Positions 6,753 through 52,087 of a stretch of 63,724 nucleotides of DNA are shown piece by piece. Both the position numbers and the translations under genes were made by a program. The notes below the pieces were generated by a model. The model was not told the DNA's origin, searched no databases, and saw only the letters and a list, made by a program, of their open reading frames with translations. Each line of letters begins with the position of its first letter. Position 1 is the stretch's first letter. Source of the stretch: Bacteroidota bacterium (GTDB taxonomy: Bacteria; Bacteroidota; Ignavibacteria; Kapaibacteriales; DASPKH01); NCBI GenBank assembly GCA_040386315.1, contig JAZKFS010000030.1, positions 13,135 through 76,858 on the forward strand, given 5' to 3'.

Positions 6753-6770
6753 AAAAGATACAGTATAATT

Positions 6771-6860
6771 GTCATTCCCGCGCAGGCGGGAATCCACACG
6801 TCAAAAGTTCGCGTAATCAATTGCGTCAAAAGATGGATTCCCGCCTGCGCGGGAATGACA
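6771..6860. repeat. palindromic intergenic element (arms GTCATTCCCGCGCAGGCGGGAATCC / GGATTCCCGCCTGCGCGGGAATGAC)
   Basis: Near-perfect 25-nt inverted arms. Each arm is itself a hairpin. The central spacer holds two CGTCAAAAG copies. Confidence 0.9.
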
Positions 6861-6870
6861 AACTTTTAAA

Positions 6871-6920
6871 ATCCAAAAATCTGTGAAATCCAAAAATCTG
6901 TGCAAATCCGTGATTCAGAA
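6871..6920. repeat. short dispersed or tandem repeat (AAATCCAAAAATCTGTG x2 ... CCGTGATTCAGA), related to 4021-4060
   Basis: 4021-4060 (atctgtgcaatcagagaaatccggtaatctgtgattcaga) shares the ATCTGTGCAA and TGTGATTCAGA-like blocks. Confidence 0.6.
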
Positions 6921-6937
6921 AAATCCTAATAAAAATC

Positions 6938-27771: not shown

Positions 27772-29565
27772 CTACACGAGTCTTCGCGCTGCAATGCACT
27801 TCATCAACCAATTCCGTTTCTTGACAAGTTCCAGCAAACTCATCTGTTCCTGCGCTTTTGAAAAACGTTTTTTCGCTTCTGCGTGAATTTTACTCACCTC
27901 AAAACTATTGCCCGACTGCTTTAAAACATACGCGAGTTTTGCTGCCAGAAGCGCACATTCCTGCCGCAATTCCTGCTCCTGCGCGGTAACGTCAATGACA
28001 TTTGCATCGGTATTTTTTTCAGGTTTTACCGTGTGAATTTTCATCTGCGGCTGCTCGGTAAATCCGGGAAAAAGTTCTAAACGATGCGAGGCGCTGCCCG
28101 TTTGCTCAACATTCTCAAGCTGCCAGACGCTCGCCTGTGGTTCAGAATTTCGCTCGGAACGCTCCTTTTGTTCAGTCAGCTTTTTGATCTTTAAACCGAG
28201 CTGCTCTTCGCCGGAAAGCCATTCCAAAATGCTCACAACGTCTGAATCATTCGCCGCATAAATATCACAGACATTTGCCTCTTCGCTCCAATCGCCGAAG
28301 TAGCGCATCCCGCGAAAAACTTGCTGCATCGTTTTTGAAAATGCGCGCACGAGATCGGCTTTAATAATGACACTGATCGGCTTAATATCCGTACCTTCAC
28401 CGATCATATCCACCTGCACCATCACGTCTATCGAGCCGTTTCGGTATTCATTTAAAAGCCCTAAACGCTCGCCTTCGGGAACATCCTGCCCGATCCGGGC
28501 AGAAGAATATTGCGGGAAATTTATCTGGATATAATCAAGGATCGCCGACGCGTGCTTATTGCTCATCGCAATTACCAACATTTGGTGCATCCGGCTTTGC
28601 GAATTTAATTTTCCCGTTGTGGCTAATTCCTCACGAAGCGCTTTCCGCTTTTCAGCGAATTTTTCAAACGCCGGAAAGAGCAGTGAATGCAGATAGACTT
28701 CATGAAAACGCATTTTCTTCCGCGCGAGAAAAGCGTCCACTTCGTTTTTATTTTTGACGATTTCCATCATTTTCGAGAGCGACATTTCGACGGTTTCGCC
28801 CGTGTCGGTTCGCGCCATTTTTATCGTGTAATCTACAATGTGAACGCCAACTTTCTTTAAAATCTTTCCTTCCGCGTGTGCATCGCGAAGTGTGACTTCA
28901 TGCAGCGCAACGTAATACTGTTCGGGATTTCCATCAAGTCCCGCACGAACCTCAAACGGAACGCCAAAAAGCGTTTTATTATCTGAGCGAAGCGGAGTTC
29001 CCGACATCGCTACGCTTGCTACATGCGGAAAATCGGAGATTTTATTTGCCCACGTGCCTTCTTCGGAAAGGTGATGCACTTCATCAAAAATAAACATGCA
29101 GGGTGCGGTCGAGCAAAATTCCCGCAGTGCGCGATGTCCGCCTTTTCCCGCCGCATATTGATATGTCGTGACGATAATCCGCGTTTGCAGGTTTTTTAAA
29201 AACACACGTTCAGAATCCGCTACACAAAATGAAAACGGCGGCGCACCAAGATTAGCAAAAACGCGGGTGAGTTCGCGCGTGTCGGCGTACTGGTCGCGAA
29301 GATTACCGCGCGGCACGAATATCACGAGCTTTTGCGCCACTTTTAAATGATTGGCAATTACAAAAGCCGCAAGTGCCGTGATGGTTTTCCCGTAGCCCGG
29401 CACGAAAACGCCAAGCTGATTTGGCTCAGCCCTTTTAAAAGCGCCTGCGAGCTTTTCTAGGAAAACGCGCTGCCCGGTTCTAAGCCGGAAGCCGTTTTTT
29501 AAAGAAATGCCGGGAAGATAATGTTCGTCGTGTGATGAATTTTTTAAAACCGGAAGCGCTGTCAT
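27772..29565 (-). CDS. superfamily-2 DEAD/DEAH-box (ResIII-type) helicase with C-terminal extension
   Basis: 597 aa. Walker A VPGYGKT, motif II FDEVHH, motif III MSGTP, and helicase-C motifs VDMIGEGTDI and QQVFRGMR. The about 150-aa C-terminal tail is unassigned. Confidence 0.8.
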   Translation of the reverse strand: MTALPVLKNSSHDEHYLPGISLKNGFRLRTGQRVFLEKLAGAFKRAEPNQLGVFVPGYGKTITALAAFVIANHLKVAQKLVIFVPRGNLRDQYADTRELTRVFANLGAPPFSFCVADSERVFLKNLQTRIIVTTYQYAAGKGGHRALREFCSTAPCMFIFDEVHHLSEEGTWANKISDFPHVASVAMSGTPLRSDNKTLFGVPFEVRAGLDGNPEQYYVALHEVTLRDAHAEGKILKKVGVHIVDYTIKMARTDTGETVEMSLSKMMEIVKNKNEVDAFLARKKMRFHEVYLHSLLFPAFEKFAEKRKALREELATTGKLNSQSRMHQMLVIAMSNKHASAILDYIQINFPQYSSARIGQDVPEGERLGLLNEYRNGSIDVMVQVDMIGEGTDIKPISVIIKADLVRAFSKTMQQVFRGMRYFGDWSEEANVCDIYAANDSDVVSILEWLSGEEQLGLKIKKLTEQKERSERNSEPQASVWQLENVEQTGSASHRLELFPGFTEQPQMKIHTVKPEKNTDANVIDVTAQEQELRQECALLAAKLAYVLKQSGNSFEVSKIHAEAKKRFSKAQEQMSLLELVKKRNWLMKCIAARRLV

Positions 29566-30348: not shown

Positions 30349-31785
30349 CTACACAATGAAATTTTCTTCAATATAACTGCTCGCTTCGGTGGTAATTTCC
30401 GCCGGAATATCCGGCTCCACAACCTCAAACTGCGCAGTAAAATGACGCAAATACGGCGCTTCAAACACAATTTTAAAACCTTTTAAAAAGTGGCGGTTTT
30501 CAAAAACCTCAATGACGGCTTCCGCCACGTAGTCAATATGGCTTTGCGTGTAGACGCGGCGTGGAATGGCGAGGCGCACCAGCTCCATTGGCGGCGCGAC
30601 GTGTTTGCCGTCTGCGTCATATTTGCCGAACATCACCGAGCCGATTTCCACGCTGCGGATGCCCGCGTGCTCATACAGCGCGCAGCTCACCGCCTGACCG
30701 GGGAATTGTGACGGCGGAATATGCGGCGCGAAACGTTTTGCGTCCAAGTACACGGCATGTCCGCCAGTCGGCACGAGCAGCGGAACGCCCGCCGCAAGCA
30801 GCTTGTCGCCGAGATATTCGATTGAGCGGATGCGGTATTCGAGATAGCGTTCGTCGAGCACTTCTTCCAGGCCGATAGCGATTGCCTCAAGGTCGCGCCG
30901 CGCCAGCCCGCCGTACGTCGGGAAACCTTCCGTCACGATAAGCACTGTGCGGGATTTCATCGCGAGCGCTTCGTCATTCATCGCGATAAAGCCGCCGGTA
31001 TTCACCATGCCATCCTTTTTCGCGCTCATCGTGCAGCCGTCGGCGTACGAAAACATCTCTCTCGCAATATCGCGCACAGACACATTTTCAAAACCCAGCT
31101 CGCGCTTTTTAATAAAAAATGCATTCTCAGCAAATCGGCACGCGTCAAGGAAAAGCGGAATCCCGTAGCGTTTTAAAACGCCCTTCACATCGCGAATATT
31201 CTGCATCGAAACAGGTTGCCCGCCTCCGCTGTTATTCGTGACCGTGAGCATGCACAGTGGGATATTTTCAGCGCCAGTTTCTATGATAAATTTTTCTAAT
31301 GCCGCAACATCCATATTTCCTTTAAAATCGCCCGGGATTTCAGGACGTTTGCCCGCTTCCGTCAGCAGGTCAACGGCCTCCGCGCCGGAATACTCGATAT
31401 TCGCGCGCGTGGTGTCAAAGTGCGTGTTATTCGGAATGAATTTGCCCGCACCGCCGGTGATGCTGAAAAGGATTTTTTCTGCCGCGCGGCCCTGGTGCGT
31501 TGGGATGACAAATTTAAAATTCGTCAAATCCTGCACCACTTTTTCAAATTTAAAATAGCTGCGCGAACCCGCATACGCCTCGTCGCCGTCCATCATTCCT
31601 GCCCACTGTTTTGCGCTCATCGCGGTCGTGCCGGAGTCCGTCAGCAGGTCAATTAAAACATAGTCAGATTTTAAAAGAAAAGGATTATAATGCGCCTTTT
31701 TTAAAAGCGACGTGCGTTCCTCCGGCGTGGTGAAATTTAGCGCTTCCACCATTTTTATTTTAAAAGGCTCGATGATTGTTTTCAT
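30349..31785 (-). CDS. tnaA: tryptophanase-like PLP-dependent beta-eliminating lyase
   Basis: 478 aa. Contains [36 protein letters not shown], the PLP-lysine context MSAKKDGMV, GIRSVEIGS and LRHFTA. These are closer to my recollection of E. coli TnaA than to TPL. Confidence 0.8.
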   Translation of the reverse strand: MKTIIEPFKIKMVEALNFTTPEERTSLLKKAHYNPFLLKSDYVLIDLLTDSGTTAMSAKQWAGMMDGDEAYAGSRSYFKFEKVVQDLTNFKFVIPTHQGRAAEKILFSITGGAGKFIPNNTHFDTTRANIEYSGAEAVDLLTEAGKRPEIPGDFKGNMDVAALEKFIIETGAENIPLCMLTVTNNSGGGQPVSMQNIRDVKGVLKRYGIPLFLDACRFAENAFFIKKRELGFENVSVRDIAREMFSYADGCTMSAKKDGMVNTGGFIAMNDEALAMKSRTVLIVTEGFPTYGGLARRDLEAIAIGLEEVLDERYLEYRIRSIEYLGDKLLAAGVPLLVPTGGHAVYLDAKRFAPHIPPSQFPGQAVSCALYEHAGIRSVEIGSVMFGKYDADGKHVAPPMELVRLAIPRRVYTQSHIDYVAEAVIEVFENRHFLKGFKIVFEAPYLRHFTAQFEVVEPDIPAEITTEASSYIEENFIV

Positions 31786-32142: not shown

Positions 32143-33648
<1,506 letters not shown>

Positions 33649-37551: not shown

Positions 37552-38643
37552 ATGAAGAACGTAAAATTTGTTAGCACGTGTGAAGTGCAAAAGGGCTTCG
37601 CTGCTGCTGTCCGCCGGAATGTAAATAATTATTTTAAAGAGCAGGGGATTTCGCCAAAGGGAAATTCCACGATGGCTTTTAAAACGGTGGCGATGCTTTC
37701 GATGTATATCCTTCCTTTTTTGGCTCTTCTTTTTGTTCCGATGAATCCGTGGTTTGGCCTTCCGCTGGTGATGCTGATGGGAGTCGGCAGCGCGGGAATC
37801 GGCATGTCGGTAATGCACGATGCGGTTCATGGCTCATATTCTAACAATGAAAAATTAAATAGAAATCTTGGACGCACAATATACATGTTGGGAAATAGCG
37901 TTTTCACGTGGAGATTGCAACACAATGTTTTCCATCACGCGTACACGAATATTGATGGTTTTGACGACGACATCGCCGGTGCGAGAATCATGCGTCTGTC
38001 CGAGCACGCCCCGCTTTTAAAAATCCATCGCTTTCAACATATTCATGCGTTTTTCTTCTACGGATTTCTCACAATTGCGAAGTTTTTTAAAGATTTCGTG
38101 CAGCTGCGCCAATTTCAAAAATTGGGTGCAATTGAAAGCCGTGTGAGCGTGAAAAAAGAATATGCAAAAATGACAATTGTCAAAATCGTGTATTTTCTCT
38201 ACATCGTCGGTTTGCCGCTTTGGCTGACGGAATTTACGTGGTGGCAGGTCGCGATTGGTTTTTTCATGCTGCACTGGACTGCGGGATTTATTCTCAGCAC
38301 GATCTTCCAGATGGCGCATATTGTGGAAGGCGCGGAGCAATTCCAGGCGAATGAGCAGGGAATAATTGAAAAAGATTGGGCTGTACACGAGTTGCTTACG
38401 ACGGCAAATTTTGCGCGTAATAACCGATTTTTAAACTGGTATATAGGCGGGCTGAATTTTCAAATTGAACATCACCTTTTTCCAAAAATCTGTCACGTTC
38501 ATTATAGCAAAATTTCTCCAATCGTTGAAAAAACAGCGAAGGAATTTGGGATTCCGTATAATGTAAAACCAACGTTTTTAAAAGCATTTGCTTCGCATGT
38601 TCGGCGGTTGAAGGAATTGGGACGGACGCCGGCGATTGGGTAG
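37552..38643 (+). CDS. membrane fatty-acid desaturase (front-end-type histidine boxes)
   Basis: His boxes HDAVHGS, HNVFHHAYTN and QIEHHLFP (Q in the third box), with several TM segments. Start taken at ATG 37552. Confidence 0.85.
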   Translation: MKNVKFVSTCEVQKGFAAAVRRNVNNYFKEQGISPKGNSTMAFKTVAMLSMYILPFLALLFVPMNPWFGLPLVMLMGVGSAGIGMSVMHDAVHGSYSNNEKLNRNLGRTIYMLGNSVFTWRLQHNVFHHAYTNIDGFDDDIAGARIMRLSEHAPLLKIHRFQHIHAFFFYGFLTIAKFFKDFVQLRQFQKLGAIESRVSVKKEYAKMTIVKIVYFLYIVGLPLWLTEFTWWQVAIGFFMLHWTAGFILSTIFQMAHIVEGAEQFQANEQGIIEKDWAVHELLTTANFARNNRFLNWYIGGLNFQIEHHLFPKICHVHYSKISPIVEKTAKEFGIPYNVKPTFLKAFASHVRRLKELGRTPAIG

Positions 38644-38663
38644 AGGTTTTTAAAAGTTCTCAC

Positions 38664-38780
38664 GGCCACTCACACTGAGCTTGTCGAAGTGCGCGATAGC
38701 AGTTCGCGTTAGTTTTTAAAAAGGTCATTCTGTCAAAACACCTGTCGAAAAATTTCGTGCTTCGACTACGCTCAGCATGA
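38664..38780. repeat. palindromic intergenic element (CACTGAGCTTGTCGAAGTGCG ... CGTGCTTCGACTACGCTCAGCATG)
   Basis: Imperfect inverted arms read directly. A different arm family from the GTCATTCC elements. Confidence 0.75.
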
Positions 38781-38863
38781 AATTTTAAAAAGAGATTTTA
38801 AAAAATAGAAGTTTTAAAACCTTTTTTTATTTGCCCGGACAAGCCTTGTCACCCCACCTGCCG

Positions 38864-38871
38864 TATATTTG
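38864..38871 (+). promoter_or_regulatory. possible Bacteroidota-type -7 promoter element (TATATTTG = TAnnTTTG)
   Basis: Exact match to the TAnnTTTG consensus, 25 nt upstream of ATG 38897. The -33 TTG spacing is not convincing. Confidence 0.3.
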
Positions 38872-38896
38872 AAAAGATTATCTTTTAAAAAAAATC

Positions 38897-39178
38897 ATGA
38901 TAAATGAAGGCCCGCCAAAGAAAATCATCCGGCGCGAAACGCAGACGTACATTCCCGGTAAAGTTTTAATGCGCACGCAAAATACTGCGGAATTTGTCGG
39001 GCTTTTAAAAGAACTCGGTTTTGACGGAGAGCTGGAGCTGGAATATTTGCAGGTGTATTATCACAAATTATATCTTTTTACAAATCCACTTCGCACTTCT
39101 GATTACGAATTTGATTATTTTGACGGCTGGTATTATGTGAAGCAGTTGGAGAAAAGGATAGTCGAATACGAATATTAA
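38897..39178 (+). CDS. hypothetical small protein preceding the WYL regulator
   Basis: 93-aa ORF ending 15 nt before the WYL gene. No family recognised. Confidence 0.5.
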   Translation: MINEGPPKKIIRRETQTYIPGKVLMRTQNTAEFVGLLKELGFDGELELEYLQVYYHKLYLFTNPLRTSDYEFDYFDGWYYVKQLEKRIVEYEY

Positions 39179-39193
39179 CTTTTTAAAAATCCC

Positions 39194-40174
39194 ATGAACG
39201 AAACGCAATCCATTTATCGCCCGGAGCTTCACCGCTTGTTCGTGCTTCTCGGCAAACTGCGCCGTAAGGAAAAATTCACGGCAGATTCGCTTGCAGATGA
39301 GTTGCAGGTGAGCGAACGCACGATACGGCGAGACATCAATTACCTGCGTGATATGCTGCAATCTCCGATAGAATTTGACCGCTGGAAACGTTCGTTTGTG
39401 CTGCATGGCGATATCGCGGATTTCCCGATGCTGCAAGTGAGCACGGGCGAAATGCTTTCGCTCTATCTTGGTCAGGCGGCGCTCCAGTCGTTTGGTGCGG
39501 GGCCTCATGCGGAATATCTTGCAGCGGCAATTCAAAAGCTCACTGCTCAGCTCCCGCAACAAATGACCGTCGGACTGGATACGCTCAGCCAGAGCATTTC
39601 CCTTCATGCCGAGCCATTGACTGCCGTTTCAGGTGAGGTCTTTAAAACTCTTGCCGAGGCGTGGCATCTGCGGCGAACAGTTGAGATGCGCTACCGCAAA
39701 AGCGACAGCCCGACGGCTGAACTGCGCCGCGTACAGCCGTATTATCTCTATCACAACGCCGGGCGCTGGTATCTTTTCGGCTACTGTTTAAAAAGCGGGG
39801 AAATCAAGACATTTCGCCTCGACAGGATGGAAGCCGTAACGATGACCTCCGACACGTTTCCTGAGCCCGATTTCGACGTTCACGCCTTTTTAAAAAACTC
39901 CTTTGGCATCTACAACGGCGGTGAGCCAAGTGATATAAAAATCCGCTTTATGGCATACGGCGCGCAGCTCGCCCGCGAAAAGCAATGGCACCCGACGCAG
40001 CTTTTAAAAGAACTGCCCGACGGCGAAGTGGAAATGCAGCTCAACGTGGTGATAAGCTCCGACCTCTACCGCTGGATACAGAGTTTCGGCGCAGAAGCCG
40101 AAGTGCTCCAGCCGCCCGAAGCCCGCGAGGAATTACGCCGCGTAGCGAGGATTATGAATGAGATGTACGGTTAG
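39194..40174 (+). CDS. WYL-domain transcriptional regulator (HTH-WYL-WCX architecture)
   Basis: 326 aa. The N-terminal HTH is FTADSLADELQVSERTIRRDINYLRD. The WYL core is RVQPYYLYHNAGRWYLFGYCLKSGEIKTFRLDRM. The C-terminal region is WCX-like. Confidence 0.88.
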   Translation: MNETQSIYRPELHRLFVLLGKLRRKEKFTADSLADELQVSERTIRRDINYLRDMLQSPIEFDRWKRSFVLHGDIADFPMLQVSTGEMLSLYLGQAALQSFGAGPHAEYLAAAIQKLTAQLPQQMTVGLDTLSQSISLHAEPLTAVSGEVFKTLAEAWHLRRTVEMRYRKSDSPTAELRRVQPYYLYHNAGRWYLFGYCLKSGEIKTFRLDRMEAVTMTSDTFPEPDFDVHAFLKNSFGIYNGGEPSDIKIRFMAYGAQLAREKQWHPTQLLKELPDGEVEMQLNVVISSDLYRWIQSFGAEAEVLQPPEAREELRRVARIMNEMYG

Positions 40175-40248
40175 GTTTTTAAAAGGGGTTTTGGTAAGTT
40201 GTGGGAGAATTTTGTTTTAAAAACTTTTTTAAAAATTGGGGTGTGAAG

Positions 40249-40983
40249 ATGAAAGTGGTTTTATTAAGAGTTGGAGTAGATTCATCCTTCGGTGAAAGTC
40301 ATGGGCCATTATTTAAAGATAATAAATTTGAATTTATTCCTATCCCAGATCCTTATAATATTGGTTCTAGAAAATATGGAAATACATCCTCTGCATCTAA
40401 TAAATCTAAAAATTTAATCGACTATTTCCCTACGTCAAAAATGAAAGATAAATCTATTCATTGGGACCCGGAATTTGAAACGAAAACTTATGGAGAGCCT
40501 AATCCTCATAGAAGAAGATTAAGAGAATTAGAGGCTGGTGATATTCTAGGATTTTATTCAGGACTCCAAAGTTTTAAAGATAAATATGATTCTAAAGGAA
40601 ACCCAGAACTCTATTTGATAGGATACTTTGAAGTGGAAAAGGTTTGGATGAAGGAAAGAGATAAACTTCCCGATGATTCGATTATGAATAATTTCCATAT
40701 AAAATATATGGATGAATTAAACAAAGAAAACAAGGAAAAGAAGCTAATAGTGATAAAAGGGACAGCTAAAAGTAGGCTCTACAAGCAAGCTTATCAAATT
40801 AGCCGGAAAGTAAGTTGTTTAGATAAAAATAAAAAGCTTTATACTGATTACCGCTTAACTTATGAAATGGAAAAGGTTTTTGGACAACTCACTGGAAAAG
40901 GCTCAATTAAACGAAGTAGTGCTAGATTAATTAATGAAAATTTTGTTGATACGGCAGCGCGTTTTCTGAAAAGTTTAAATTAA
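40249..40983 (+). CDS. hypothetical protein A of the WYL-linked cassette (AT-rich; possible PUA-like barrel)
   Basis: 244 aa from ATG 40249. Conspicuously low G+C with no TTTTAAAA. LRVGVDSSFGESHGPLF..FEFIPIPD and AGDILGFYSG...LYLIGYFEVEKV only loosely resemble EVE/ASCH-type patterns. Confidence 0.6.
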   Translation: MKVVLLRVGVDSSFGESHGPLFKDNKFEFIPIPDPYNIGSRKYGNTSSASNKSKNLIDYFPTSKMKDKSIHWDPEFETKTYGEPNPHRRRLRELEAGDILGFYSGLQSFKDKYDSKGNPELYLIGYFEVEKVWMKERDKLPDDSIMNNFHIKYMDELNKENKEKKLIVIKGTAKSRLYKQAYQISRKVSCLDKNKKLYTDYRLTYEMEKVFGQLTGKGSIKRSSARLINENFVDTAARFLKSLN

Positions 40984-40990
40984 GAACCCT

Positions 40991-41880
40991 ATGTCAATCT
41001 GCAACATCTGTAATCAGGAAATGCTCACTGCCAGTTCCTGCGAAAACAAAACGGTCTTAGGGCTTGATGCTATTCGTTTCGGCGATGAGCGCGATGTGTT
41101 TATTGAGGGGCGGCAAGTTGCAATGAAGCCGGTGCCGACCGAGAAGTGCCGTGATTGCGGTGTGTCGCAAGGCGGCTATCATCATCGCGGCTGCTGTGTG
41201 GAGCAATGTCCTAATTGTTGGGAGCAGGTTTTTTGTTGCGGCTGTTTGGATGCCGAAATGCTTCTTTCACTATCATTTGAAGACTTTGTAGATAACTTCG
41301 ACTATGAAGGCGCAATTATCCTGCTCGAAGGCAAGCGCGACGTTTTGCCGGAGCTACAGGAAAAGCTGACCGCGCTTGGCGCAAAGCTCTGCCGCGAAAC
41401 GAAGCACGCACGGTTCAGGAGTGGTAATGCTTCCGGTGCTGACGAGTTCTTTTCTAAAGGTGTTGCAAGCGTTGATGCGGGCCGGCTGGAAGTCATTACG
41501 CCATTTGACAATCATCGGAAGGCGAAAAATGCTGCGCACACAACCTATTCGCTTGATGCAATTGATTTAGTACATGAACCCGAAGTAGTGTACCAGACAA
41601 GGGCGAATAAAAAAATCGAAAAACTTGTAGATTCGTACGTGCAGGGAATTAACAATAAATTAACAATAAAGTAACGATAAAAGCTGCGTATCTGCTGCGC
41701 GATACGGTAAAAGTAATCGGCGCTCAAAGTAGTGGAATTCCGAGCACAGACTTTGCAATTTTCTACGACGACCTTTCTGCTCCGCGTCAAGGCGGAACCG
41801 GCCATACAATGGGAATTTGTGATGCCAATAACGTTCCGTTTGTCAATCAGGAAGTCTGGTTGAAGTGGCTGGAAGATTGA
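40991..41880 (+). pseudogene. Cys-rich zinc-ribbon + SLOG (Smf/DprA-LOG-like) protein, frameshifted by an 11-bp tandem duplication
   Basis: The ORF 40991-41674 has CxxC pairs (CNIC, CRDC, CPNC, CCGC) and RSGNASGADEFF. After the duplication the +2 frame continues open to TGA 41878-41880. It encodes ...AAYLLRDTVKVIG...PRQGGTGHTMGIC...VPFVN, the second SLOG glycine loop. Confidence 0.7.
41649..41670 (+). repeat. perfect 11-bp tandem duplication TTAACAATAAA x2
   Basis: 41649-41659 and 41660-41670 are identical. Deleting one copy fuses the two reading frames into a 292-aa ORF. Confidence 0.95.
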
Positions 41881-41919
41881 TTGCTAAAGTACAAGACATA
41901 AAGATTTTAAAGTTTGCTC

Positions 41920-43557
41920 ATGAAGCTCACAGGCAATACCATTCTCATTCCTGATGCAAATTCTCCGCTCATGGTCGAGCTTGTGAAGCGGCTGTATGCG
42001 TTTGGCAATACGCTTGTTATCGGAAGCCATAGTCCTGAAGATATTCGCAAAGCGTGCCGTCCGAAAATTGCCGGGAGCAAAGTTTTTAAAAAGGAATTCG
42101 ATAAATATTCCAGCCGGGATCGCGAAAAATTTGTGCAATGGGCTTTAAAAACTCATCCTGATATAAACGGTGCTTTTCTGCTTCCGTGGGGTTTTAAAAC
42201 GGACGCGCAGTTCCATCGTCCCGTGGCCCATTGGATGATTGGGCCGCAGCTGTCGGATACCATTGTCCAGCCGCTTCACTTTACGGGATTGCTCGCCGCG
42301 CATCTGGCTTCAAAAAAGGAAAGTTTTATCGCGTTTTTCTCCGGCAAACCTTTTTCCGAACAGCCGCTTGTTGATGCGGCACACGCGGCGATTCACGCAT
42401 TTGCCGCATCGGCACGTTCGCAGCTTGAGGATACTTCTGTCCGGCTTTTTGAATTTGAATATCTCCAGAACAATGACGGCGCGGAAGCATATAAGGGCGA
42501 TGAGCTGAAAAAATTTTGCGCTAACGTGCTTCACGCCTTACAGCAAAATTCCTTTAAAAATCCCGTACATCCGCACAATGACATGCAAGCTCCTAATGGA
42601 AATGACTATCGCTTTACAACACTTCATTCCGTTCCAAAAGCAATACTCTTCGGCGTGGCTATCGGCGACGCGCTCGGCGTTCCTGTTGAATTTTTAAGCC
42701 GAGAAGAGCTTTTAAAAAATCCCATTACCGGAATGTGCGGCTACGGCACGCACAGCCAGCCGCCAGGCACGTGGTCGGACGATAGCTCGCTTACATTTTG
42801 CCTTGCGGAAAGTCTGCTGAAAGGCTATGATGTAAAGTCAATGGCGGGAAATTTCCTGATGTGGCTGCATTACGCCTCGTGGACGGCGCATGATGAAGTT
42901 TTCGACGTTGGCATTACGACGCAGGGCGCTTTGCAGAATCTTGCTGATGGCGCAGAACCCACAATGTCGGGACTCGCAGACGAAAATAGCAACGGCAATG
43001 GTTCGCTTATGCGGATTTCGCCGCTGCTGCTGGAAATTCACGACAAGCCGATTAAAGAACGCTTTTTAAAAACGCGGGAAGTTTCGTTCATCACGCACCG
43101 GCATATCCGCTCGGTGATTTCGTGTTTTATGTACCTGGAATTTGCGCGGGAGATCCTTTTAAAAAAGAATAAATTTACGGCCTTTAAAAAGGTGCAAAAA
43201 TCCGTTCCTGAGTTTTTAAAAAATGAGAATATTGATAAAAGGGAAATTGCAATTTTCGACCGCGTTTTAAAAGGCGATATTTCAGAATTGCCGGAAAGCG
43301 AGATTAAAAGCAGCGGCTACGTCGTTCATACGCTGGAAGCAAGTATTTGGTGCTTTTTAAAAACGGATTCGTACAAAAGCGCGGTTTTAAAAGCGGTGAA
43401 TCTTGGCGATGACACGGATACAACGGGCGCGGTAACCGGCGGACTGGCAGGGCTGTATTACGGCGTGGAAGAGCCATTGGATGATCCAGAATGGCGGATT
43501 GCGCAGCACGAAAGAATTGAAGCTCTTGCTGAAAAGCTTCAAGAAAAATATTTTTAA
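41920..43557 (+). CDS. degenerate Rossmann (SDR-like) N-terminal domain fused to ADP-ribosylglycohydrolase (ARH/DraG family)
   Basis: The C-terminal half has FGVAIGDALGVPVEF, WSDDSSLT, GNGSLMRISP and GDDTDTTGAVTGGLAG (ARH metal-binding motifs). The N-terminal about 230 aa has an SDR-like beta-alpha pattern but lacks GxxxGxG and YxxxK. Confidence 0.85.
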   Translation: MKLTGNTILIPDANSPLMVELVKRLYAFGNTLVIGSHSPEDIRKACRPKIAGSKVFKKEFDKYSSRDREKFVQWALKTHPDINGAFLLPWGFKTDAQFHRPVAHWMIGPQLSDTIVQPLHFTGLLAAHLASKKESFIAFFSGKPFSEQPLVDAAHAAIHAFAASARSQLEDTSVRLFEFEYLQNNDGAEAYKGDELKKFCANVLHALQQNSFKNPVHPHNDMQAPNGNDYRFTTLHSVPKAILFGVAIGDALGVPVEFLSREELLKNPITGMCGYGTHSQPPGTWSDDSSLTFCLAESLLKGYDVKSMAGNFLMWLHYASWTAHDEVFDVGITTQGALQNLADGAEPTMSGLADENSNGNGSLMRISPLLLEIHDKPIKERFLKTREVSFITHRHIRSVISCFMYLEFAREILLKKNKFTAFKKVQKSVPEFLKNENIDKREIAIFDRVLKGDISELPESEIKSSGYVVHTLEASIWCFLKTDSYKSAVLKAVNLGDDTDTTGAVTGGLAGLYYGVEEPLDDPEWRIAQHERIEALAEKLQEKYF

Positions 43558-43573
43558 ATTCGGGTTTTAAAAT

Positions 43574-43666
43574 TGTCATTGCGAGCGGAGCGTGGTAATC
43601 GCGAATACTTCGGACGCGTCATTCTGTATTTGCGATTGCCACGTCGGAAGACCTCCTCGCAATGAC
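43574..43666. repeat. palindromic intergenic element (TGTCATTGCGAGCGGAGCGTGGTAATCGCGAA ... TTGCGATTGCCACGTCGGAAGACCTCCTCGCAATGAC)
   Basis: Inverted arms with a central CGGACGCGTCA core. Confidence 0.85.
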
Positions 43667-43905
43667 GAAATATAAATTAAGGTTTTAAAAGCTGCATCTT
43701 TTAAAACCTTTTTTTCTGCCAAAATTGCTTTTTAGGCCTGACAGTTTTTCAAAGTCCTGCCACGGCTTGCGCCAATATTTCCGAAAAATGCTTTTAAAAA
43801 GCTGAAAAACGAGTTTGGCACACTTCTGCTATAAAGATTCTTCGACACTTTACACCGTCAAAAAAAGTAACAGTTTTTAAAAGATTTTTATCAGGAGTTT
43901 TAAAA

Positions 43906-48525: not shown

Positions 48526-50589
48526 ATGCCTCAAATTTTTGAACATCAGCCGATTGTCGCACGAACTGAACAGCTCGGGACTTTACGTGCTCAGCTGCAA
48601 CTTTTAAAAAGCAAAAAAGGCAGCGTAATCTGCATTGCGGGCGAATCCGCTTTTGGCAAAACAACGCTTTTACGGGCATTTGCCGGAGAAGCAAGCCGCG
48701 ATACGGAAATCAACGTCATTTACGCAGAATGCCAGGCGCCTGTCGGGGCATTTAATCTTGGAAATTTACAGCCATTTCTGCCATTTGCGCGAGCTTTGGA
48801 GGAACTGCTCAGCCATGAAAGCACGACGGCAAAAAAGAAACTCGCACTCAATATCGGCATGACTGTTCTCTCGACGATCCCACTTGCGGGCGACCTTTTT
48901 TACGCTTTTAAAGAAATTTCGCGTGATGTGAAAGATTTTAAAAAAGACAAATCTTTTAAAAGCACAAACCCTGCTGTGCGCGAATATTTTGACGCTTTTA
49001 AAAACTATTCTGACAGTATGCCGCTTGTGCTGCTGCTCGATGATATGCAGTGGAGCGATGCACAATCTGTCGAGCTGCTTAAAGCTCTTGCTGCGGAAAT
49101 TACCAATCTGCCAATCATGCTTGTCGTGGCATATCGTCCGAGCCTGGTGGAAAAAACGGGAATTCCACTCGCCGGATTTTTACAGGATTTTAAAAAAGAC
49201 ACAGCTTTTATTAAACACCTTGAAGTGTCGGAATTTTCTTTAAAAGATATTTCCGACTGCTGCCGCGCGCTTTTAAAAAATTACAAACCAAATCAGAAAT
49301 TTGAAGAATGGCTGCTCGTGCGCTCGGGTGGCGTTCCCGGAATTGTTGTGGAATATCTGCGCTATTTCCAAAAATTCTCGCCGTTTCGCGCTGATGGAAG
49401 TTTTAATGAAGAGAATTTTAAAGATGAATTCCTTCCGGCAAGTGTGTCAGCGGCTTTTGAAAAACAGCTTGAGGAATTGAGTGAAGAAGACCGTACGATC
49501 CTTGCCATTGCCAGCGCGGAAGGAATTGAAAGTACGGCTTTTGTGATGGCCGACCTGCTTAATACAGATGTTTTGACTACAATCAAAAAGCTACGTTCAA
49601 TTACCCAGCGAACCGGGATCCTGCGTTCGATGGGCGCTCATGCGCGCTACGGAGTACGAACCACGGTGTATCAGTTTACAAAAACATTTTACTACACGCA
49701 CTTTGAAAACACGCTGGAATACGAAGAAAAACTCGCACTCCACGCACAGATCGCTGCGCTTTTAAATCGCCAGTTCGAGCAGACGGATTCCGAGGAATTG
49801 CGCCGCCAGCTCGCGCCATACATCGCCGCGCACAGTTCTGAAGCCGGCGATGATGAATTAACAAAAGAGATGCTTTTAAAAAGTGCTGAAACGGCAGAAA
49901 AAGTCGGCAGCCGCGAAATGGCAGAAACCGCTTTTAAAGAATTCCAAAGCCGCGAAATTGAAACGGAGATAAAGTCAGATTTGCAGGAAAAGTTTGAAAA
50001 AATCCTTGCTGATGAGGAAATTTCAGACGAAACTCCTGACGAAAATCTTTTAAAAACATCCGGCGGCGAAGCGGTTGTAAAAGCTCCGTTCGACTTCCAG
50101 ATGGCGTGGCATGAAATTGTGCAATATCACCTCAACGGCGACTTTAAAAACGCAGAAACAAAAGCGCTCGACTACAGCGAACGTTTTAAAATGCAATTAT
50201 TAACAAGTGAACGCGCGCTCTTTTTAATTCTCGCAGCCCGCGCCGCCACAGAGCTTTCCGAGCTTGACCGCGCGGAAGATCTTTGTATGCAAGCGTCAGC
50301 GCTCACGAGCGATGCCGCTGATATTTCCACAGAATGTTTGCTTTTAAACGCGTTCGCAGCGATTCGTTTACGGCAAAATCAATTTGACGAAGCGCATAAC
50401 TTCCTGCTTAAAGCTGCCGAGCAATCTTTAAAACTCCCACAGGAAATGCGTCTGCTGACAATCAGCAATATTGCATTGCTGCTTGAAGACCGCGATCCGG
50501 CACAAGCCGCCAAATATCGCAGCGCCGCAACAAAAATGAGTACGAGCTTGCGTTTCAACGGATTTGCGCGGGAAGCGCTTTCGGCGTAA
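48526..50589 (+). CDS. STAND-like P-loop NTPase (AAA_16-type) with C-terminal TPR-like helical repeats
   Basis: 687 aa. Walker A GESAFGKTT and Walker B LVLLLDDMQWSD (the typical AAA_16 DD.QW.D motif). The C-terminal half is helical-repeat. Starts 13 nt after the membrane protein gene. Confidence 0.75.
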   Translation: MPQIFEHQPIVARTEQLGTLRAQLQLLKSKKGSVICIAGESAFGKTTLLRAFAGEASRDTEINVIYAECQAPVGAFNLGNLQPFLPFARALEELLSHESTTAKKKLALNIGMTVLSTIPLAGDLFYAFKEISRDVKDFKKDKSFKSTNPAVREYFDAFKNYSDSMPLVLLLDDMQWSDAQSVELLKALAAEITNLPIMLVVAYRPSLVEKTGIPLAGFLQDFKKDTAFIKHLEVSEFSLKDISDCCRALLKNYKPNQKFEEWLLVRSGGVPGIVVEYLRYFQKFSPFRADGSFNEENFKDEFLPASVSAAFEKQLEELSEEDRTILAIASAEGIESTAFVMADLLNTDVLTTIKKLRSITQRTGILRSMGAHARYGVRTTVYQFTKTFYYTHFENTLEYEEKLALHAQIAALLNRQFEQTDSEELRRQLAPYIAAHSSEAGDDELTKEMLLKSAETAEKVGSREMAETAFKEFQSREIETEIKSDLQEKFEKILADEEISDETPDENLLKTSGGEAVVKAPFDFQMAWHEIVQYHLNGDFKNAETKALDYSERFKMQLLTSERALFLILAARAATELSELDRAEDLCMQASALTSDAADISTECLLLNAFAAIRLRQNQFDEAHNFLLKAAEQSLKLPQEMRLLTISNIALLLEDRDPAQAAKYRSAATKMSTSLRFNGFAREALSA

Positions 50590-50590
50590 A

Positions 50591-51988
50591 TTATAATTTA
50601 ACATTTTGCTGGATATGCTCTAAAATATTATTTGCCGCTACATTGGCAATTTGAGCACACTCTTCATTTGTTAATGTTTCATAATAGAACTTTTTAAAAG
50701 CAAAATTATTAACTGTTTCCGCATTACTTAGGATTACATTTTTGCTGTTTACTACACCAAATTTATAATCGCCGAACCAGACTGAAATCGATTGTGTAAC
50801 ATCAAAGTTGTTGTCAATTTCTCGATTAAACATTCTTAGAAAATAACTTAGAGAAATATAACCACCATTTTTTAAGAATATAGAAGCGTTATCTTTTAAA
50901 AATGTAAAAATCTCTAATGTTGAAATTGAGTTTAATCTTATAGCGTCATTTGTGTTAGAACTCTTCTTTATCGCTATGGCTATATTCTTTTCAAAAAAGA
51001 GCTCATCGAAATGGCTTAGCTTTTGTATTGTCGTTTTAAAAAGTGGTATTACTGAATTTTCAACCACGTGAAGAATCGCCTCTTCTGATCGCCGCGTATG
51101 TTTAATTCCTTCCTCCGGCTTCTTCAGCTTTGCTTTAAAAAGCGCAATCTTCTTATCAACTTCATCTAAATCTTCTATATTCTCGCCGTATGCGCCTTTT
51201 AAAAAGAGTTCAAGCGAGCGGATGAGCTGTTCGCCGAGGTAGATTACAAAGCTATCTAAATCACCTATGTTTGCCTGCTGTAATGCGCGTAGGTAATTTA
51301 CTTTGTCCTCGGTATGGATTATAGCCGGTAAAAAGTTGTTCATCATCAGGATAAGATTCATCAGTAATCTGGCAATACGACCATTGCCATCATCAAACGG
51401 ATGAATCATAATGAATCTATAATGAAAGGTCGCAGCCAGTGTAAGAGGATGGATTTCCTTTTTTAAAAGCTCGTTCCGTAACCATTCTATAAGTTCCTGC
51501 ATTTTCGGTGCAGTATCTTCAGGGCTTGTAAAGTCAATCTGCTCACCCGTTGTTGTCGTTACATAATTTGGTTGGGATTTATATCGTCCTGGATAAATTG
51601 TACGATGTGTATTTTTCCCATCCGGTGTGAAAGCCTCATCGTTATATGGCTCTATTCCAAAAATCATTTGATGAAGTTGTCTGATTACTAATTCTGATAT
51701 TGGCTTATTATTGCTTACAATATCCTCAAGTTCCAAAATAGCTTCATTATGACCTCTAATTTCCAAATGGTCGCGAAATGGTTTGCCGCCAGCCGTCAAA
51801 CCATGAAGGAGGAAAGCTTTCGTTTCGCCGTATGTAAGGGAATTTCCCTCAATGTTACTTGAGTGATAGCTCCAGTCAAACCTGAATTTGCGGTTAATTC
51901 TATTGAGAATATCCGGCGAAATCGGGCGGAGTTCATCTATCTGTGTTTTTAAAAAATCGATCCGCTCAATTATTTCTACGACGTCCAT
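50591..51988 (-). CDS. Fic-family protein (AMPylase-type) with N-terminal inhibitory motif and unassigned C-terminal extension
   Basis: The Fic motif is HPFDDGNGRIARLLMN. An upstream SNIEGN fits the (S/T)xxxE(G/N) auto-inhibition motif. The about 170-aa C-terminal region is unknown. Start taken at ATG 51988. Confidence 0.85.
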   Translation of the reverse strand: MDVVEIIERIDFLKTQIDELRPISPDILNRINRKFRFDWSYHSSNIEGNSLTYGETKAFLLHGLTAGGKPFRDHLEIRGHNEAILELEDIVSNNKPISELVIRQLHQMIFGIEPYNDEAFTPDGKNTHRTIYPGRYKSQPNYVTTTTGEQIDFTSPEDTAPKMQELIEWLRNELLKKEIHPLTLAATFHYRFIMIHPFDDGNGRIARLLMNLILMMNNFLPAIIHTEDKVNYLRALQQANIGDLDSFVIYLGEQLIRSLELFLKGAYGENIEDLDEVDKKIALFKAKLKKPEEGIKHTRRSEEAILHVVENSVIPLFKTTIQKLSHFDELFFEKNIAIAIKKSSNTNDAIRLNSISTLEIFTFLKDNASIFLKNGGYISLSYFLRMFNREIDNNFDVTQSISVWFGDYKFGVVNSKNVILSNAETVNNFAFKKFYYETLTNEECAQIANVAANNILEHIQQNVKL

Positions 51989-52087
51989 TGCAAAAACCTC
52001 TGTAAATTTGCTTTTAAAAAGCAGGAATGCCACAAGCAAGTGGTATATTGCAAATATAAACGGTTTGCACTCATTATTCAGAAATTC

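Follow-up and report, generated by a model that had tools for sequence, protein, structure and literature searches.

A cassette of WYL-regulator, Nmad3, SLOG and ADP-ribosylglycohydrolase genes in a Kapaibacteriales genome, probably conflict-related and with an exchangeable Nmad3 position

Introduction

Does a short run of genes with a WYL regulator near its head and an ADP-ribosylglycohydrolase (ARG) at its end constitute a system of biological conflict, and if so, of what kind? The question is raised by a DNA stretch of 63,724 nucleotides, here called the window, from an Ignavibacteria genome of the order Kapaibacteriales (assembly GCA_040386315.1, contig JAZKFS010000030.1, positions 13,135 to 76,858), which carries at 38897-43557 a cassette of five genes, g1 to g5. 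An initial annotation, made from the sequence alone, had proposed an uncharacterised conflict system centred on nicotinamide adenine dinucleotide (NAD) and ADP-ribose. Our analysis indicates that the cassette is real and lineage-restricted, and that it is probably conflict-related. The biochemical roles of its products, its operator and its inducer are those that we infer; the reading towards which we lean, with somewhat less than even confidence, is an inducible conflict module for recognising ADP-ribose-type (ribosyl) adducts and for removing or processing them.

A five-gene unit conserved at two genomic sites

The open reading frame (ORF) list of the window contained all five ORFs that had been described as co-oriented and tightly spaced. 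The genes and their parts are:

38897-39178, + strand: g1, 93 residues, family unassigned, first gene of the putative operon
39194-40174, + strand: g2, HTH-WYL-WCX (HTH, helix-turn-helix) transcription factor
40249-40983, + strand: g3, Nmad3 family, 244 residues, alternative GTG start at 40201, 31% guanine plus cytosine (GC)
40991-41880, + strand: g4, Cys-rich N-terminal domain (about 90 residues) plus DprA-like SLOG domain; pseudogene with a stop at 41674 after a frameshift
41647-41668, + strand: lesion of g4, an exact 11-bp tandem duplication (AATTAACAATA twice) that shifts the frame
41914/41920-43557, + strand: g5 ORF, of 545 residues from the ATG at 41920
41920-42621, + strand: g5 N-terminal domain, a degenerate short-chain dehydrogenase (SDR), pseudo-enzyme
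42622-43557, + strand: g5 C-terminal domain, ARG of the DraG/Tri1-like type

The closest homologue of the ARG (P0146, 80% identity) was located on L167, a 615-kb metagenomic contig to which the Logan contig L168 is identical. Gene order in L167 is the same as in the window, namely g1, WYL, Nmad3, an intact 292-residue zinc-ribbon (ZnR)-SLOG gene and ARG, while the flanks differ wholly: in L167 one side has a P-type ATPase and a TonB receptor, and the other has OmpA with a sigma-54 activator. The cassette is a conserved unit at two genomic sites. Comparison of the window with L167 by the Nei-Gojobori method (synonymous divergence, dS, 0.75-1.0) gave ratios of non-synonymous to synonymous divergence (dN/dS) of 0.06 for g1 (89% identical), 0.15 for the WYL gene (81%), 0.08 for g4 (87%) and 0.18 for the ARG (80%), which indicates that these four are real genes under purifying selection in lineages whose separation is old.

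In the window, hsp20-hsp20-dnaK follows the cassette directly. The nearest Ignavibacteria/Kapabacteria relatives, whose DnaK proteins are 77-78% identical, keep the hsp20-hsp20-dnaK synteny and lack the cassette.

Between g1 and WYL, where the window has a 15-bp spacer, L167 carries an additional stretch of about 157 bp that includes a 44-codon ORF (6762-6932).

Nmad3 alleles are exchanged within the conserved unit

The 244-residue product of g3, for which the initial annotation could name no family, was found to belong to Nmad3 (Pfam PF18754, E 1.9e-29, above the gathering score). DNA homology between the window and L167 breaks at the ribosome-binding site and start codon of Nmad3 and resumes at the start codon of the SLOG gene. 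The L167 gene in this slot is also an Nmad3 (E 5e-56) but is only 20% identical to g3. A partial cassette, L166, whose SLOG is 88% identical, carries a third Nmad3 allele; this one shares 34% identity with the L167 gene and no detectable similarity with g3. Both complete alleles have 31-33% GC, as against 47-56% for the neighbouring genes of the cassette. Since homology breaks precisely at this gene, three cassettes hold three alleles and the GC content is low, the Nmad3 position is an exchangeable, hypervariable slot, and Nmad3 is the sole exchanged ORF of the cassette.

The AlphaFold (AF2) model of g3, built from 22 homologues (predicted local distance difference test, pLDDT, 85; predicted template modelling score, pTM, 0.84), was compared with solved structures using Foldseek. 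The top matches in the Protein Data Bank (PDB) were all PUA-like, of the EVE, ASCH and YTH types, and were weak (E 0.01-0.3, template modelling score 0.3-0.5); they included the EVE proteins PH1033 and MJECL36, the 5-methylcytosine-reading N-domain of T. gammatolerans McrB (TgMcrB-N), ASCH proteins such as the N4-acetylcytidine amidohydrolase YqfB, and YTH. The best matches among viral structures (BFVD) were again ASCH proteins. The loose PUA/EVE resemblance noted earlier may hold at the level of fold only, g3 being a putative PUA-like beta-barrel protein of the Nmad3 family. Residues R7, D11, D24, H71, D73, D98 and H150 show no variation between two Nmad3 subfamilies that are very divergent, and this polar set looks more like an active site than a mere binding cage.

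A genome scan with the g3 sequence alone returned no relative, and an alignment-based search was needed to find homologues. The Nmad3 profile gave one weak match in viral contigs and nothing significant in a sequence search of the PDB, and a literature search on Nmad3 and PF18754 found nothing relevant.

Neighbourhoods were surveyed at 80 genome loci for each of the Nmad3, SLOG and ARG families, using 10-kb flanks, custom hidden Markov models (HMMs) and clustering. Homologues of g3 with 36-45% identity occur in Acidobacteria, Planctomycetes, Verrucomicrobia and Chloroflexi, and in at least 43 of the 80 Nmad3 loci an overlapping Nmad2-like gene lies directly upstream. Neither SLOG nor WYL genes were found at these loci, and an ARG was nearby once (L117); this ARG is divergent and stands beside a normal Nmad2-Nmad3 pair, so the link is possibly coincidental. 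Nmad3 genes of the L167 type occur on plasmids, where their neighbours are AbiJ-NTD4 at the end of a prophage, a metallophosphoesterase together with an HD protein, or genes of the HNH and Dcm types.

At L003 and L004 (4500-8218), which hold the closest relatives of g3, an Nmad2-Nmad3 pair lies immediately downstream of the type I restriction-modification (RM) genes hsdM-hsdS; L004 has these two genes intact, and in L003 they are broken into fragments. With NERD, ParE and DUF433/DUF5615 toxin-antitoxin genes in the vicinity, the context resembles a defence island.

A PUA-like protein with swapped alleles could suggest modification-dependent attack, akin to type IV restriction or to a DNA glycosylase, in which Nmad3 would read a modified base of the phage and SLOG and/or ARG would excise the base or ribosyl adduct and so damage the invader. 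Type IV restriction enzymes do exchange PUA-like readers (EVE, YTH, ASCH), the top structural matches of g3 include TgMcrB-N, the Nmad3 alleles are exchanged precisely, and relatives of Nmad3 stand beside type I RM, HNH, Dcm and AbiJ genes. Furthermore, one component of the validated NTTI defence is an Nmad2 protein, and SLOG and ARG are both folds capable of glycosidase activity. The cassette has, however, no nuclease and no GTPase/ATPase motor, the invariant polar cluster of Nmad3 is enzyme-like and not an aromatic cage alone, and the nearest characterised relatives of the ARG act on protein Arg-ADP-ribose; we consider attack of this kind quite unlikely.

The zinc-finger/SLOG gene and its frameshift

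The SLOG domain that had been read from the sequence of g4 is supported by PHROG 768 (E 1e-8), by Foldseek and by the SGNAxGxD (GNASGAD) and GGTGHT loops, which are invariant in the family. Pfam gave it no support, since searches at E up to 10 with g4, with the isolated SLOG domain or with the zinc-finger region matched no SLOG model, and a sequence search of the PDB with the SLOG profile returned nothing significant. In the AF2 model residues 95-292 have pLDDT above 88, and the Cys-rich N-terminal domain of about 90 residues is poorly modelled. Foldseek placed H. pylori DprA first (E 1.8e-5), followed by LOG and the molybdenum cofactor carrier proteins (MCP), all three with probability 1.0 and with the Rossmannoid alpha/beta fold of SLOG domains; ShosA (8zva, E 0.012) and the SLOG domain of BcThsA (7uxs, E 0.017) ranked lower. 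Because the domain is structurally closest to DprA, a binder of single-stranded DNA (ssDNA), and less close to the cyclic ADP-ribose sensor ThsA, the ThsA-like sensor role first suggested for g4 is not favoured.

The 80 SLOG-homologue loci contained neither ARG nor Nmad3 nearby. The family is mostly solitary; its only recurrent neighbour is a g2-like WYL gene, present within the 10-kb flanks in 13 of 80 loci (within 4 kb in 11) and often directly downstream, where a rough estimate of the chance expectation is below 1 per 80. Genes for AAA ATPase, PDDEXK_4, DUF2779 and metallophosphatase proteins occur nearby sporadically. A metagenome scan with full-length g4 yielded standalone SLOG genes only and no further cassette. 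The Cys-rich N-terminal domain is restricted to the cassette copies; apparent zinc-finger extensions in L018, L023 and L170 proved spurious, being read through stop codons.

This DprA-like family comprises at least 1,330 members (clusters) in Bacteroidota, Ignavibacteria and Chlorobi and is without a Pfam or NCBIfam model; most members are standalone proteins of about 197 residues with 55-63% identity and about 47 invariant residues.

In the window g4 is interrupted. Deleting one AATTAACAATA copy restores a 292-residue protein that ends at 41880 and is 87-88% identical to intact 292-residue proteins elsewhere, and both halves of the frameshifted gene match the SLOG-family HMM. The frameshift, which in the comparison with L167 is found in the window copy only, costs the SLOG domain its last 65 residues, and with them about half of the positions that are invariant in the family; it probably disables the window cassette. 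The segment 3' of the frameshift is 95% identical to L167, and because it keeps a dN/dS of 0.02 the lesion must be recent, polymorphic or an assembly error.

The lesion invites the suggestion that the window copy is a decaying remnant, horizontally acquired, now without function and being lost, the more so as a motif-dead SDR fragment is fused before the ARG, which has lost its own start codon. The low dN/dS after the frameshift argues against decay since the lesion arose, the other four ORFs are intact, with SDR-ARG keeping an uninterrupted frame of 545 codons, and the duplication may itself reflect variation in the population or an error of assembly. We hold this account to be very improbable.

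The regulator and the region upstream of g1

The HTH-WYL-WCX architecture assigned earlier to g2 was confirmed by Pfam (HTH_11, E 7e-10; WYL, 9e-23; WCX, 2e-15). Its nearest solved relatives are PafBC (7e-16) and DriD (1e-11), followed by CapW (2e-9) and BrxR (7e-5). Apart from the SLOG loci described above, g2-like WYL genes were found near ARG homologues in 7 of 80 loci, adjacent in 4 of them, against the same rough chance expectation of below 1 per 80. As the initial annotation had stated, g1 has no recognisable family: it matched nothing in Pfam, NCBIfam, PADLOC or PHROGs, nor in the PDB.

Two features lie between the start of the DNA shared with L167 and g1:

38838-38850, no strand: candidate WYL operator, the 6-1-6 palindrome GACAAGCCTTGTC
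38864-38871, + strand: TATATTTG, matching the Bacteroidota-type -7 element TAnnTTTG, 26 nt 5' of the g1 ATG

The palindrome GACAAGCCTTGTC occurs once in the window, against an expectation of 0.07, and lies inside a block of about 40 bp upstream of g1 that is conserved with L167, where it reads GACAACGCTTGTC. It is a candidate operator to which g2 may bind. TAnnTTTG is the -7 promoter element of the Bacteroidota type, and on this general knowledge of promoters we propose a promoter role for TATATTTG, which is identical in L167. The conserved block may thus combine promoter and operator. Scans of the region for sigma-70 promoters and terminators gave no counts above shuffled expectation.

An ADP-ribosylglycohydrolase fused to a dead dehydrogenase

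The earlier description of g5 as a degenerate Rossmann domain joined to an apparently active ARG was upheld and made more specific. The ARG domain matches PF03747 with E 2e-71, and its closest solved relatives are Lmo0067 (1e-77), the Tre1-immunity protein Tri1 (6e-39, PDB 6dre) and DraG; the closest named NCBIfam match is Tri1. An alignment of 18 sequences revealed invariant positions D16, S52-D53-D54, H159/H161 and D264-T265-D266-T268, and the motifs GDALG, SDDSS, THRH and GDDTDTTGA are kept, so that the metal and catalytic site looks intact. The literature on Lmo0067 offered nothing relevant.

The first 236 or so residues of g5 are homologous to classical SDR proteins (66 phmmer matches, best E 2e-11; all eight of the top matches scanned were adh_short). 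The signature motifs have been lost, TGxxxGxG being replaced by PDANSPLM, NNAG by LPWG and YxxxK by V-DAA-H; the Ser loop is four residues shorter, and the domain does not conform to the classical SDR pattern. A Pfam search of this part at E up to 10 matched nothing, adh_short included, and a PDB sequence search gave nothing significant. The SDR domain corresponds to an insertion of about 750 bp in the window that is absent in L167. There, the ARG begins 15 bp after the SLOG stop with an ATG that is replaced in the window; as the ARG domain has no start codon of its own, it can be made in the window only as the 545-residue fusion. Two origins considered for the N-terminal part were rejected, namely that it replaces Nmad2 and that it was copied recently from an SDR gene in the vicinity; it has no paralogue in the window.

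Several ARG homologues of 460-490 residues (P0147, P0168, P0196, P0254 and others) carry unrelated N-terminal domains of about 157 residues, one of them PF20118. This repeated occurrence in the clade suggests that N-terminal accretion on ARGs is frequent, and it parallels the dead-SDR fusion.

Might the ARG be the antidote of a toxin-antitoxin or abortive-infection system, in which Nmad3 or ZnR-SLOG would be a toxin acting on nucleotides, NAD or nucleic acids, and WYL would repress the genes until infection? ARG-type antidotes exist (DraG/DraT, Tri1/Tre1, DarG3), ShosA, the DprA-like protein of the Shosta toxin-antitoxin defence, is among the structural matches of g4 (8zva), inactivation by duplication, as in g4, is a frequent fate of toxic genes, and the Nmad3 slot is hypervariable. 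Against this, ADP-ribosyltransferase (ART), NADase (TIR/SIR2) and nuclease domains were undetected in all five proteins with Pfam, NCBIfam, PADLOC and PHROGs, and nothing supports toxicity of Nmad3 or SLOG. In Shosta, moreover, the DprA-like protein is the antitoxin and not the toxin. A toxin-antitoxin function is in our judgement unlikely.

The closest ARG homologues outside the lineage (50-60% identity, Bacteroidota) pointed in another direction. In 37 of 80 loci KptA/Tpt1 lies directly downstream, and other neighbours are a calcineurin-like phosphoesterase (27 of 80), DUF4291 (18), Macro (16 and 14), Sir2 (15) and a gene like phosphoribosyl pyrophosphate (PRPP) synthase (15). Neither SLOG nor Nmad3 was found in these 80 loci. 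Known metabolism was named at the outset as the finding that would tell against a conflict system, and it comes close here, the closest ARG relatives sitting in KptA/Macro/Sir2 clusters that process ADP-ribose.

The cassette could accordingly be housekeeping or stress-inducible metabolism, salvaging or detoxifying ADP-ribose and NAD metabolites or by-products of RNA and DNA repair under a WYL factor of the PafBC/DriD type. Besides these neighbours (KptA/Tpt1, phosphoesterases, Macro, Sir2 and PRPP-synthase-like genes), such a role would fit a g2 nearer to the DNA-damage-sensing PafBC and DriD than to BrxR, the nucleotide N-glycosidase activity of LOG-type SLOG enzymes, and the housekeeping flanks in both genomes, together with the hsp20-hsp20-dnaK genes directly downstream in the window. 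It fits poorly with a cassette that is missing at the syntenic hsp20-dnaK site of the nearest genomes and stands at another site in the sister genome, that has no KptA, Macro, Sir2 or phosphatase, and that is rare and patchily distributed; swaps of low-GC alleles of 20-34% identity are likewise unexpected for a metabolic operon. We rate the metabolic explanation as decidedly improbable.

An adduct-removal module as the preferred reading

The surveys and comparisons indicate that the cassette is a lineage-restricted assembly of parts from three contexts, namely WYL-SLOG pairs, Nmad2-Nmad3 pairs and the KptA/Macro/Sir2 ADP-ribose clusters. Exchange of Nmad3 alleles, domain accretion, relocation and gene inactivation are classic signatures of conflict systems, and the conflict character claimed in the initial annotation stands on such hallmarks: the allele-swapped slot, its low-GC alleles, the accreted domain and the inactivated gene. 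The idea that a signal is generated within the cassette is not supported, because no gene is a recognisable generator of a signal or of ADP-ribose; neither ART nor sirtuin was found in the cassette or its flanking genes (Pfam, NCBIfam, PADLOC and PHROGs on the cassette proteins, the family of g1 being unassigned).

A module that removes adducts is favoured since an ARG without an ART under WYL control follows the template of Iyer et al. (2022), DarG3 offers a precedent, the partner proteins are of the nucleic-acid type, and the conflict signatures are present. Under this reading g1, WYL, Nmad3, ZnR/SLOG and (SDR)-ARG would form a single autoregulated operon. The WYL regulator would sit on the promoter palindrome and switch its state on a ligand derived from nucleic acid or ADP-ribose. 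The ARG would be the catalytic core that hydrolyses the ribosyl linkage; the PUA-like Nmad3 would provide recognition of the substrate or of a modified base, or the first chemical step, and the zinc-finger/DprA-like SLOG protein would bind single-stranded nucleic acid or a nucleotide ligand. The adducts would probably be carried by nucleic acids, or by proteins hit by foreign ADP-ribosyltransferases. A nucleic-acid-linked substrate is suggested by the PUA-like Nmad3, by the DprA-like SLOG with its zinc finger, and by a WYL protein nearest to the ssDNA-sensing PafBC and DriD.

Several observations weigh against this module. The initial annotation would have had the three effector genes recur together, and beyond one lineage they do not: combinations were seen in 0 of 80 SLOG, 1 of 80 Nmad3 and 0 of 80 ARG loci. 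No recognisable defence island surrounds either copy of the cassette, both of which are flanked by housekeeping genes, and the KptA/Macro/Sir2/PRPP-synthase clusters of the ARG relatives may represent housekeeping RNA repair or NAD metabolism. The phosphatases and chaperones typical of the ARG systems of Iyer et al. are absent from the cassette. The Nmad3 family has no characterised member, and the structural matches of g3 are weak, the best E-value being 0.01. Across Bacteroidota, proteins of the SLOG family share about 60% identity, a degree of conservation that looks more like that of a conserved enzyme than of a fast-evolving immune protein, and the SLOG gene of the window copy is frameshifted.

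A bolder variant, for which we see only a slim chance, is an undescribed form of immunity in which a swappable, enzyme-like Nmad3 would specify a modified or ADP-ribosylated nucleic acid, DprA-like SLOG and ARG would excise or reverse the adduct, and a WYL protein sensing ssDNA or ADP-ribose would exert control. This would amount to immunity or repair by base or ribosyl excision with an exchangeable specificity gene, and, if true, would give a first function to Nmad3 and to a large Bacteroidota SLOG family without a Pfam model.

Should the cassette be functional, it would offer a concrete and compact case in which to test the predicted ARG-centred, WYL-regulated reversal of hostile ADP-ribosylation, and would tie Nmad3, the DprA-like SLOG family of about 197 residues and the 93-residue g1 to ADP-ribose chemistry. 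The exchange of Nmad3 alleles in an otherwise conserved operon would mark the component that meets the enemy, and the alleles would be natural specificity variants. Were it a stress or metabolic operon instead, it would represent a new type of regulon for PafBC/DriD-like WYL factors in the Fibrobacteres-Chlorobi-Bacteroidetes (FCB) group.

Flanking structures and other features of the window

Three further features flank the cassette:

38664-38780, no strand: upstream imperfect palindrome, RNA fold of -34.6 kcal/mol, z -1.9 (weak)
43574-43666, no strand: nested hairpin of 93 nt directly 3' of the g5 stop, -49.5 kcal/mol, z -6.6
43679-43717, + strand: terminator-like hairpin, a 13-bp stem formed from two TTTTAAAA words, followed by a T-run

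The palindromes described earlier as bounding the cassette are of unequal strength, the downstream one being strongly structured and the upstream one weakly so, and neither belongs to the block conserved with L167. That block begins at 38834, which leaves the upstream palindrome outside it; this element probably belongs to the 3' end of the upstream desaturase gene and not to the cassette. The nested hairpin has perfect 11-nt outer arms (GTCATTGCGAG/CTCGCAATGAC), is not repeated elsewhere in the window and has no counterpart at L167; it may be an element like repetitive extragenic palindromes or an RNA-stabilising structure. Because the flanking palindromes fall outside the DNA shared with L167 and are unrepeated in the window, the possibility that they are the ends of a mobile element was rejected. 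The case for a terminator at 43679-43717 rests on its position, the count of such sites in the region not exceeding chance, and this stem, too, is not shared with L167. No RNA family was matched in an Rfam search of the window.

The palindromic octamer TTTTAAAA has 310 copies in the window (4.9 per kb), whereas 12 +/- 3 are expected from dinucleotide shuffles; AAAATTTT has 10 copies and TTAATTAA 2. Long ORFs carry TTTTAAAA at about 3.3 per kb and the remaining sequence at about 20 per kb, with examples at 38576-38890, 40177-40234 and 43563-43900. As it is dense in the window and in L167 (5.2 per kb) and nearly absent from the nearest Ignavibacteria/Kapabacteria loci (0-0.3 per kb), it is a lineage-specific, genome-wide word. 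It may serve as an uptake-signal-like sequence, a nucleoid-protein site or a building block of promoters or terminators; a literature search on the octamer found none.

Possible conflict genes lie 9-10 kb from the cassette, namely a ResIII/SNF2-type helicase (27772-29565, - strand), an AAA_16 ATPase of 687 residues (48526-50589, + strand) and a Fic/DOC protein (50591-52039, - strand). The window also contains tandem paralogous beta-eliminating lyases of the tryptophanase or tyrosine phenol-lyase type (30349-31785 and 32143-33621, - strand; PF01212, E 1e-80 each).

Comparison with known systems

PADLOC recognised the WYL regulator among the cassette proteins and nothing else, and neither PADLOC, nor Pfam annotations, nor the searchable literature yielded the g1-WYL-Nmad3-ZnR/SLOG-ARG architecture with its hypervariable Nmad3 slot. 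The earlier statement that the combination is no named system agrees with the PADLOC result; the general arrangement, an ARG under WYL control without an ART, had nevertheless been predicted.

Other described systems share single features with the cassette. DarG3 (NAR 2026, PMC13069673) is reported to be an ARG-fold antitoxin of the DNA-ADP-ribosylating DarT in the validated DarTG/DarHTG defence; the cassette likewise has an ARG-fold hydrolase, and its DprA-like and PUA-like partners fit a nucleic-acid substrate, but it has neither DarT (a DUF4433 ART) nor a helicase, and in sequence its ARG is closest to Lmo0067, Tri1 and DraG. In the Nmad2-Nmad3 modules (PF18753/PF18754) the resemblance lies in g3, a bona fide Nmad3 whose closest relatives (36-45% identity) occur in such pairs; no Nmad2, however, is encoded in any of the six frames of the window, and g3 stands between WYL and SLOG/ARG genes, a context found in 0 of 80 other Nmad3 loci. 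The validated NTTI defence system includes an Nmad2 protein (DefensePredictor, Science 2026), and the text and supplements of that study mention Nmad2 and not Nmad3.

The Bacteroidota clusters of KptA/Tpt1, ARG, Macro, Sir2 and phosphoesterase genes hold the closest outside ARGs (50-60%), some with an adjacent WYL gene. They lack Nmad3 and SLOG (0 of 80), whereas the cassette lacks KptA, Macro, Sir2, DUF4291, a metallophosphatase and a PRPP-synthase-like gene. With Shosta and Thoeris the cassette shares a SLOG fold similar to those of ShosA and ThsA, respectively, although g4 is structurally nearer to DprA and LOG; there is no ShosT phosphoribosyltransferase for the former, no TIR protein ThsB and no SIR2 or transmembrane effector for the latter, and no PADLOC match to either.

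Regulators of the BrxR/CapW type share the HTH-WYL-WCX architecture with g2, are encoded at the head of the defence operon that they control and bind an inverted repeat upstream of it. A unique conserved palindrome, to which g2 may bind, lies upstream of g1; in sequence g2 is nearer to PafBC and DriD than to CapW or BrxR. A WYL gene beside a PUA-like protein also characterises the YafY (HTH-WYL)-EVE operons, for which a role in antibiotic resistance was proposed (Bell, Wolf and Koonin 2020, BMC Biol 18:159); these contain a true EVE protein with SRPBCC or VOC partners, in place of Nmad3, SLOG and ARG.

The closest correspondence is with the ARG-centred systems, regulated by WYL or Nudix proteins, that Iyer, Burroughs, Anantharaman and Aravind (2022, Viruses 14:1977, section 3.8) predicted to counter viral ADP-ribosylation, with a WYL/Nudix one-component transcription factor in about 42% and a coupled phosphatase in about 55%. 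That family is itself only predicted, and its hosts are actinobacteria, planctomycetes and proteobacteria, whereas the host of the cassette is Ignavibacteria-like. The cassette differs in having no rhodanese, calcineurin/HD/HAD phosphatase, vWA, SseB or TY chaperone, and no Macro, NADAR, restriction endonuclease (REase) or ARPP; its accessories are Nmad3, the ZnR-DprA-like SLOG protein, the 93-residue g1 and the dead SDR. It agrees in its ARG with an intact site, in a one-component HTH-WYL regulator, in variable accreted accessories and in the displacement of components between close relatives. The parts of the cassette are known families, its WYL-ARG logic has already been predicted, and the systems of Iyer et al. 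are the nearest described kind.

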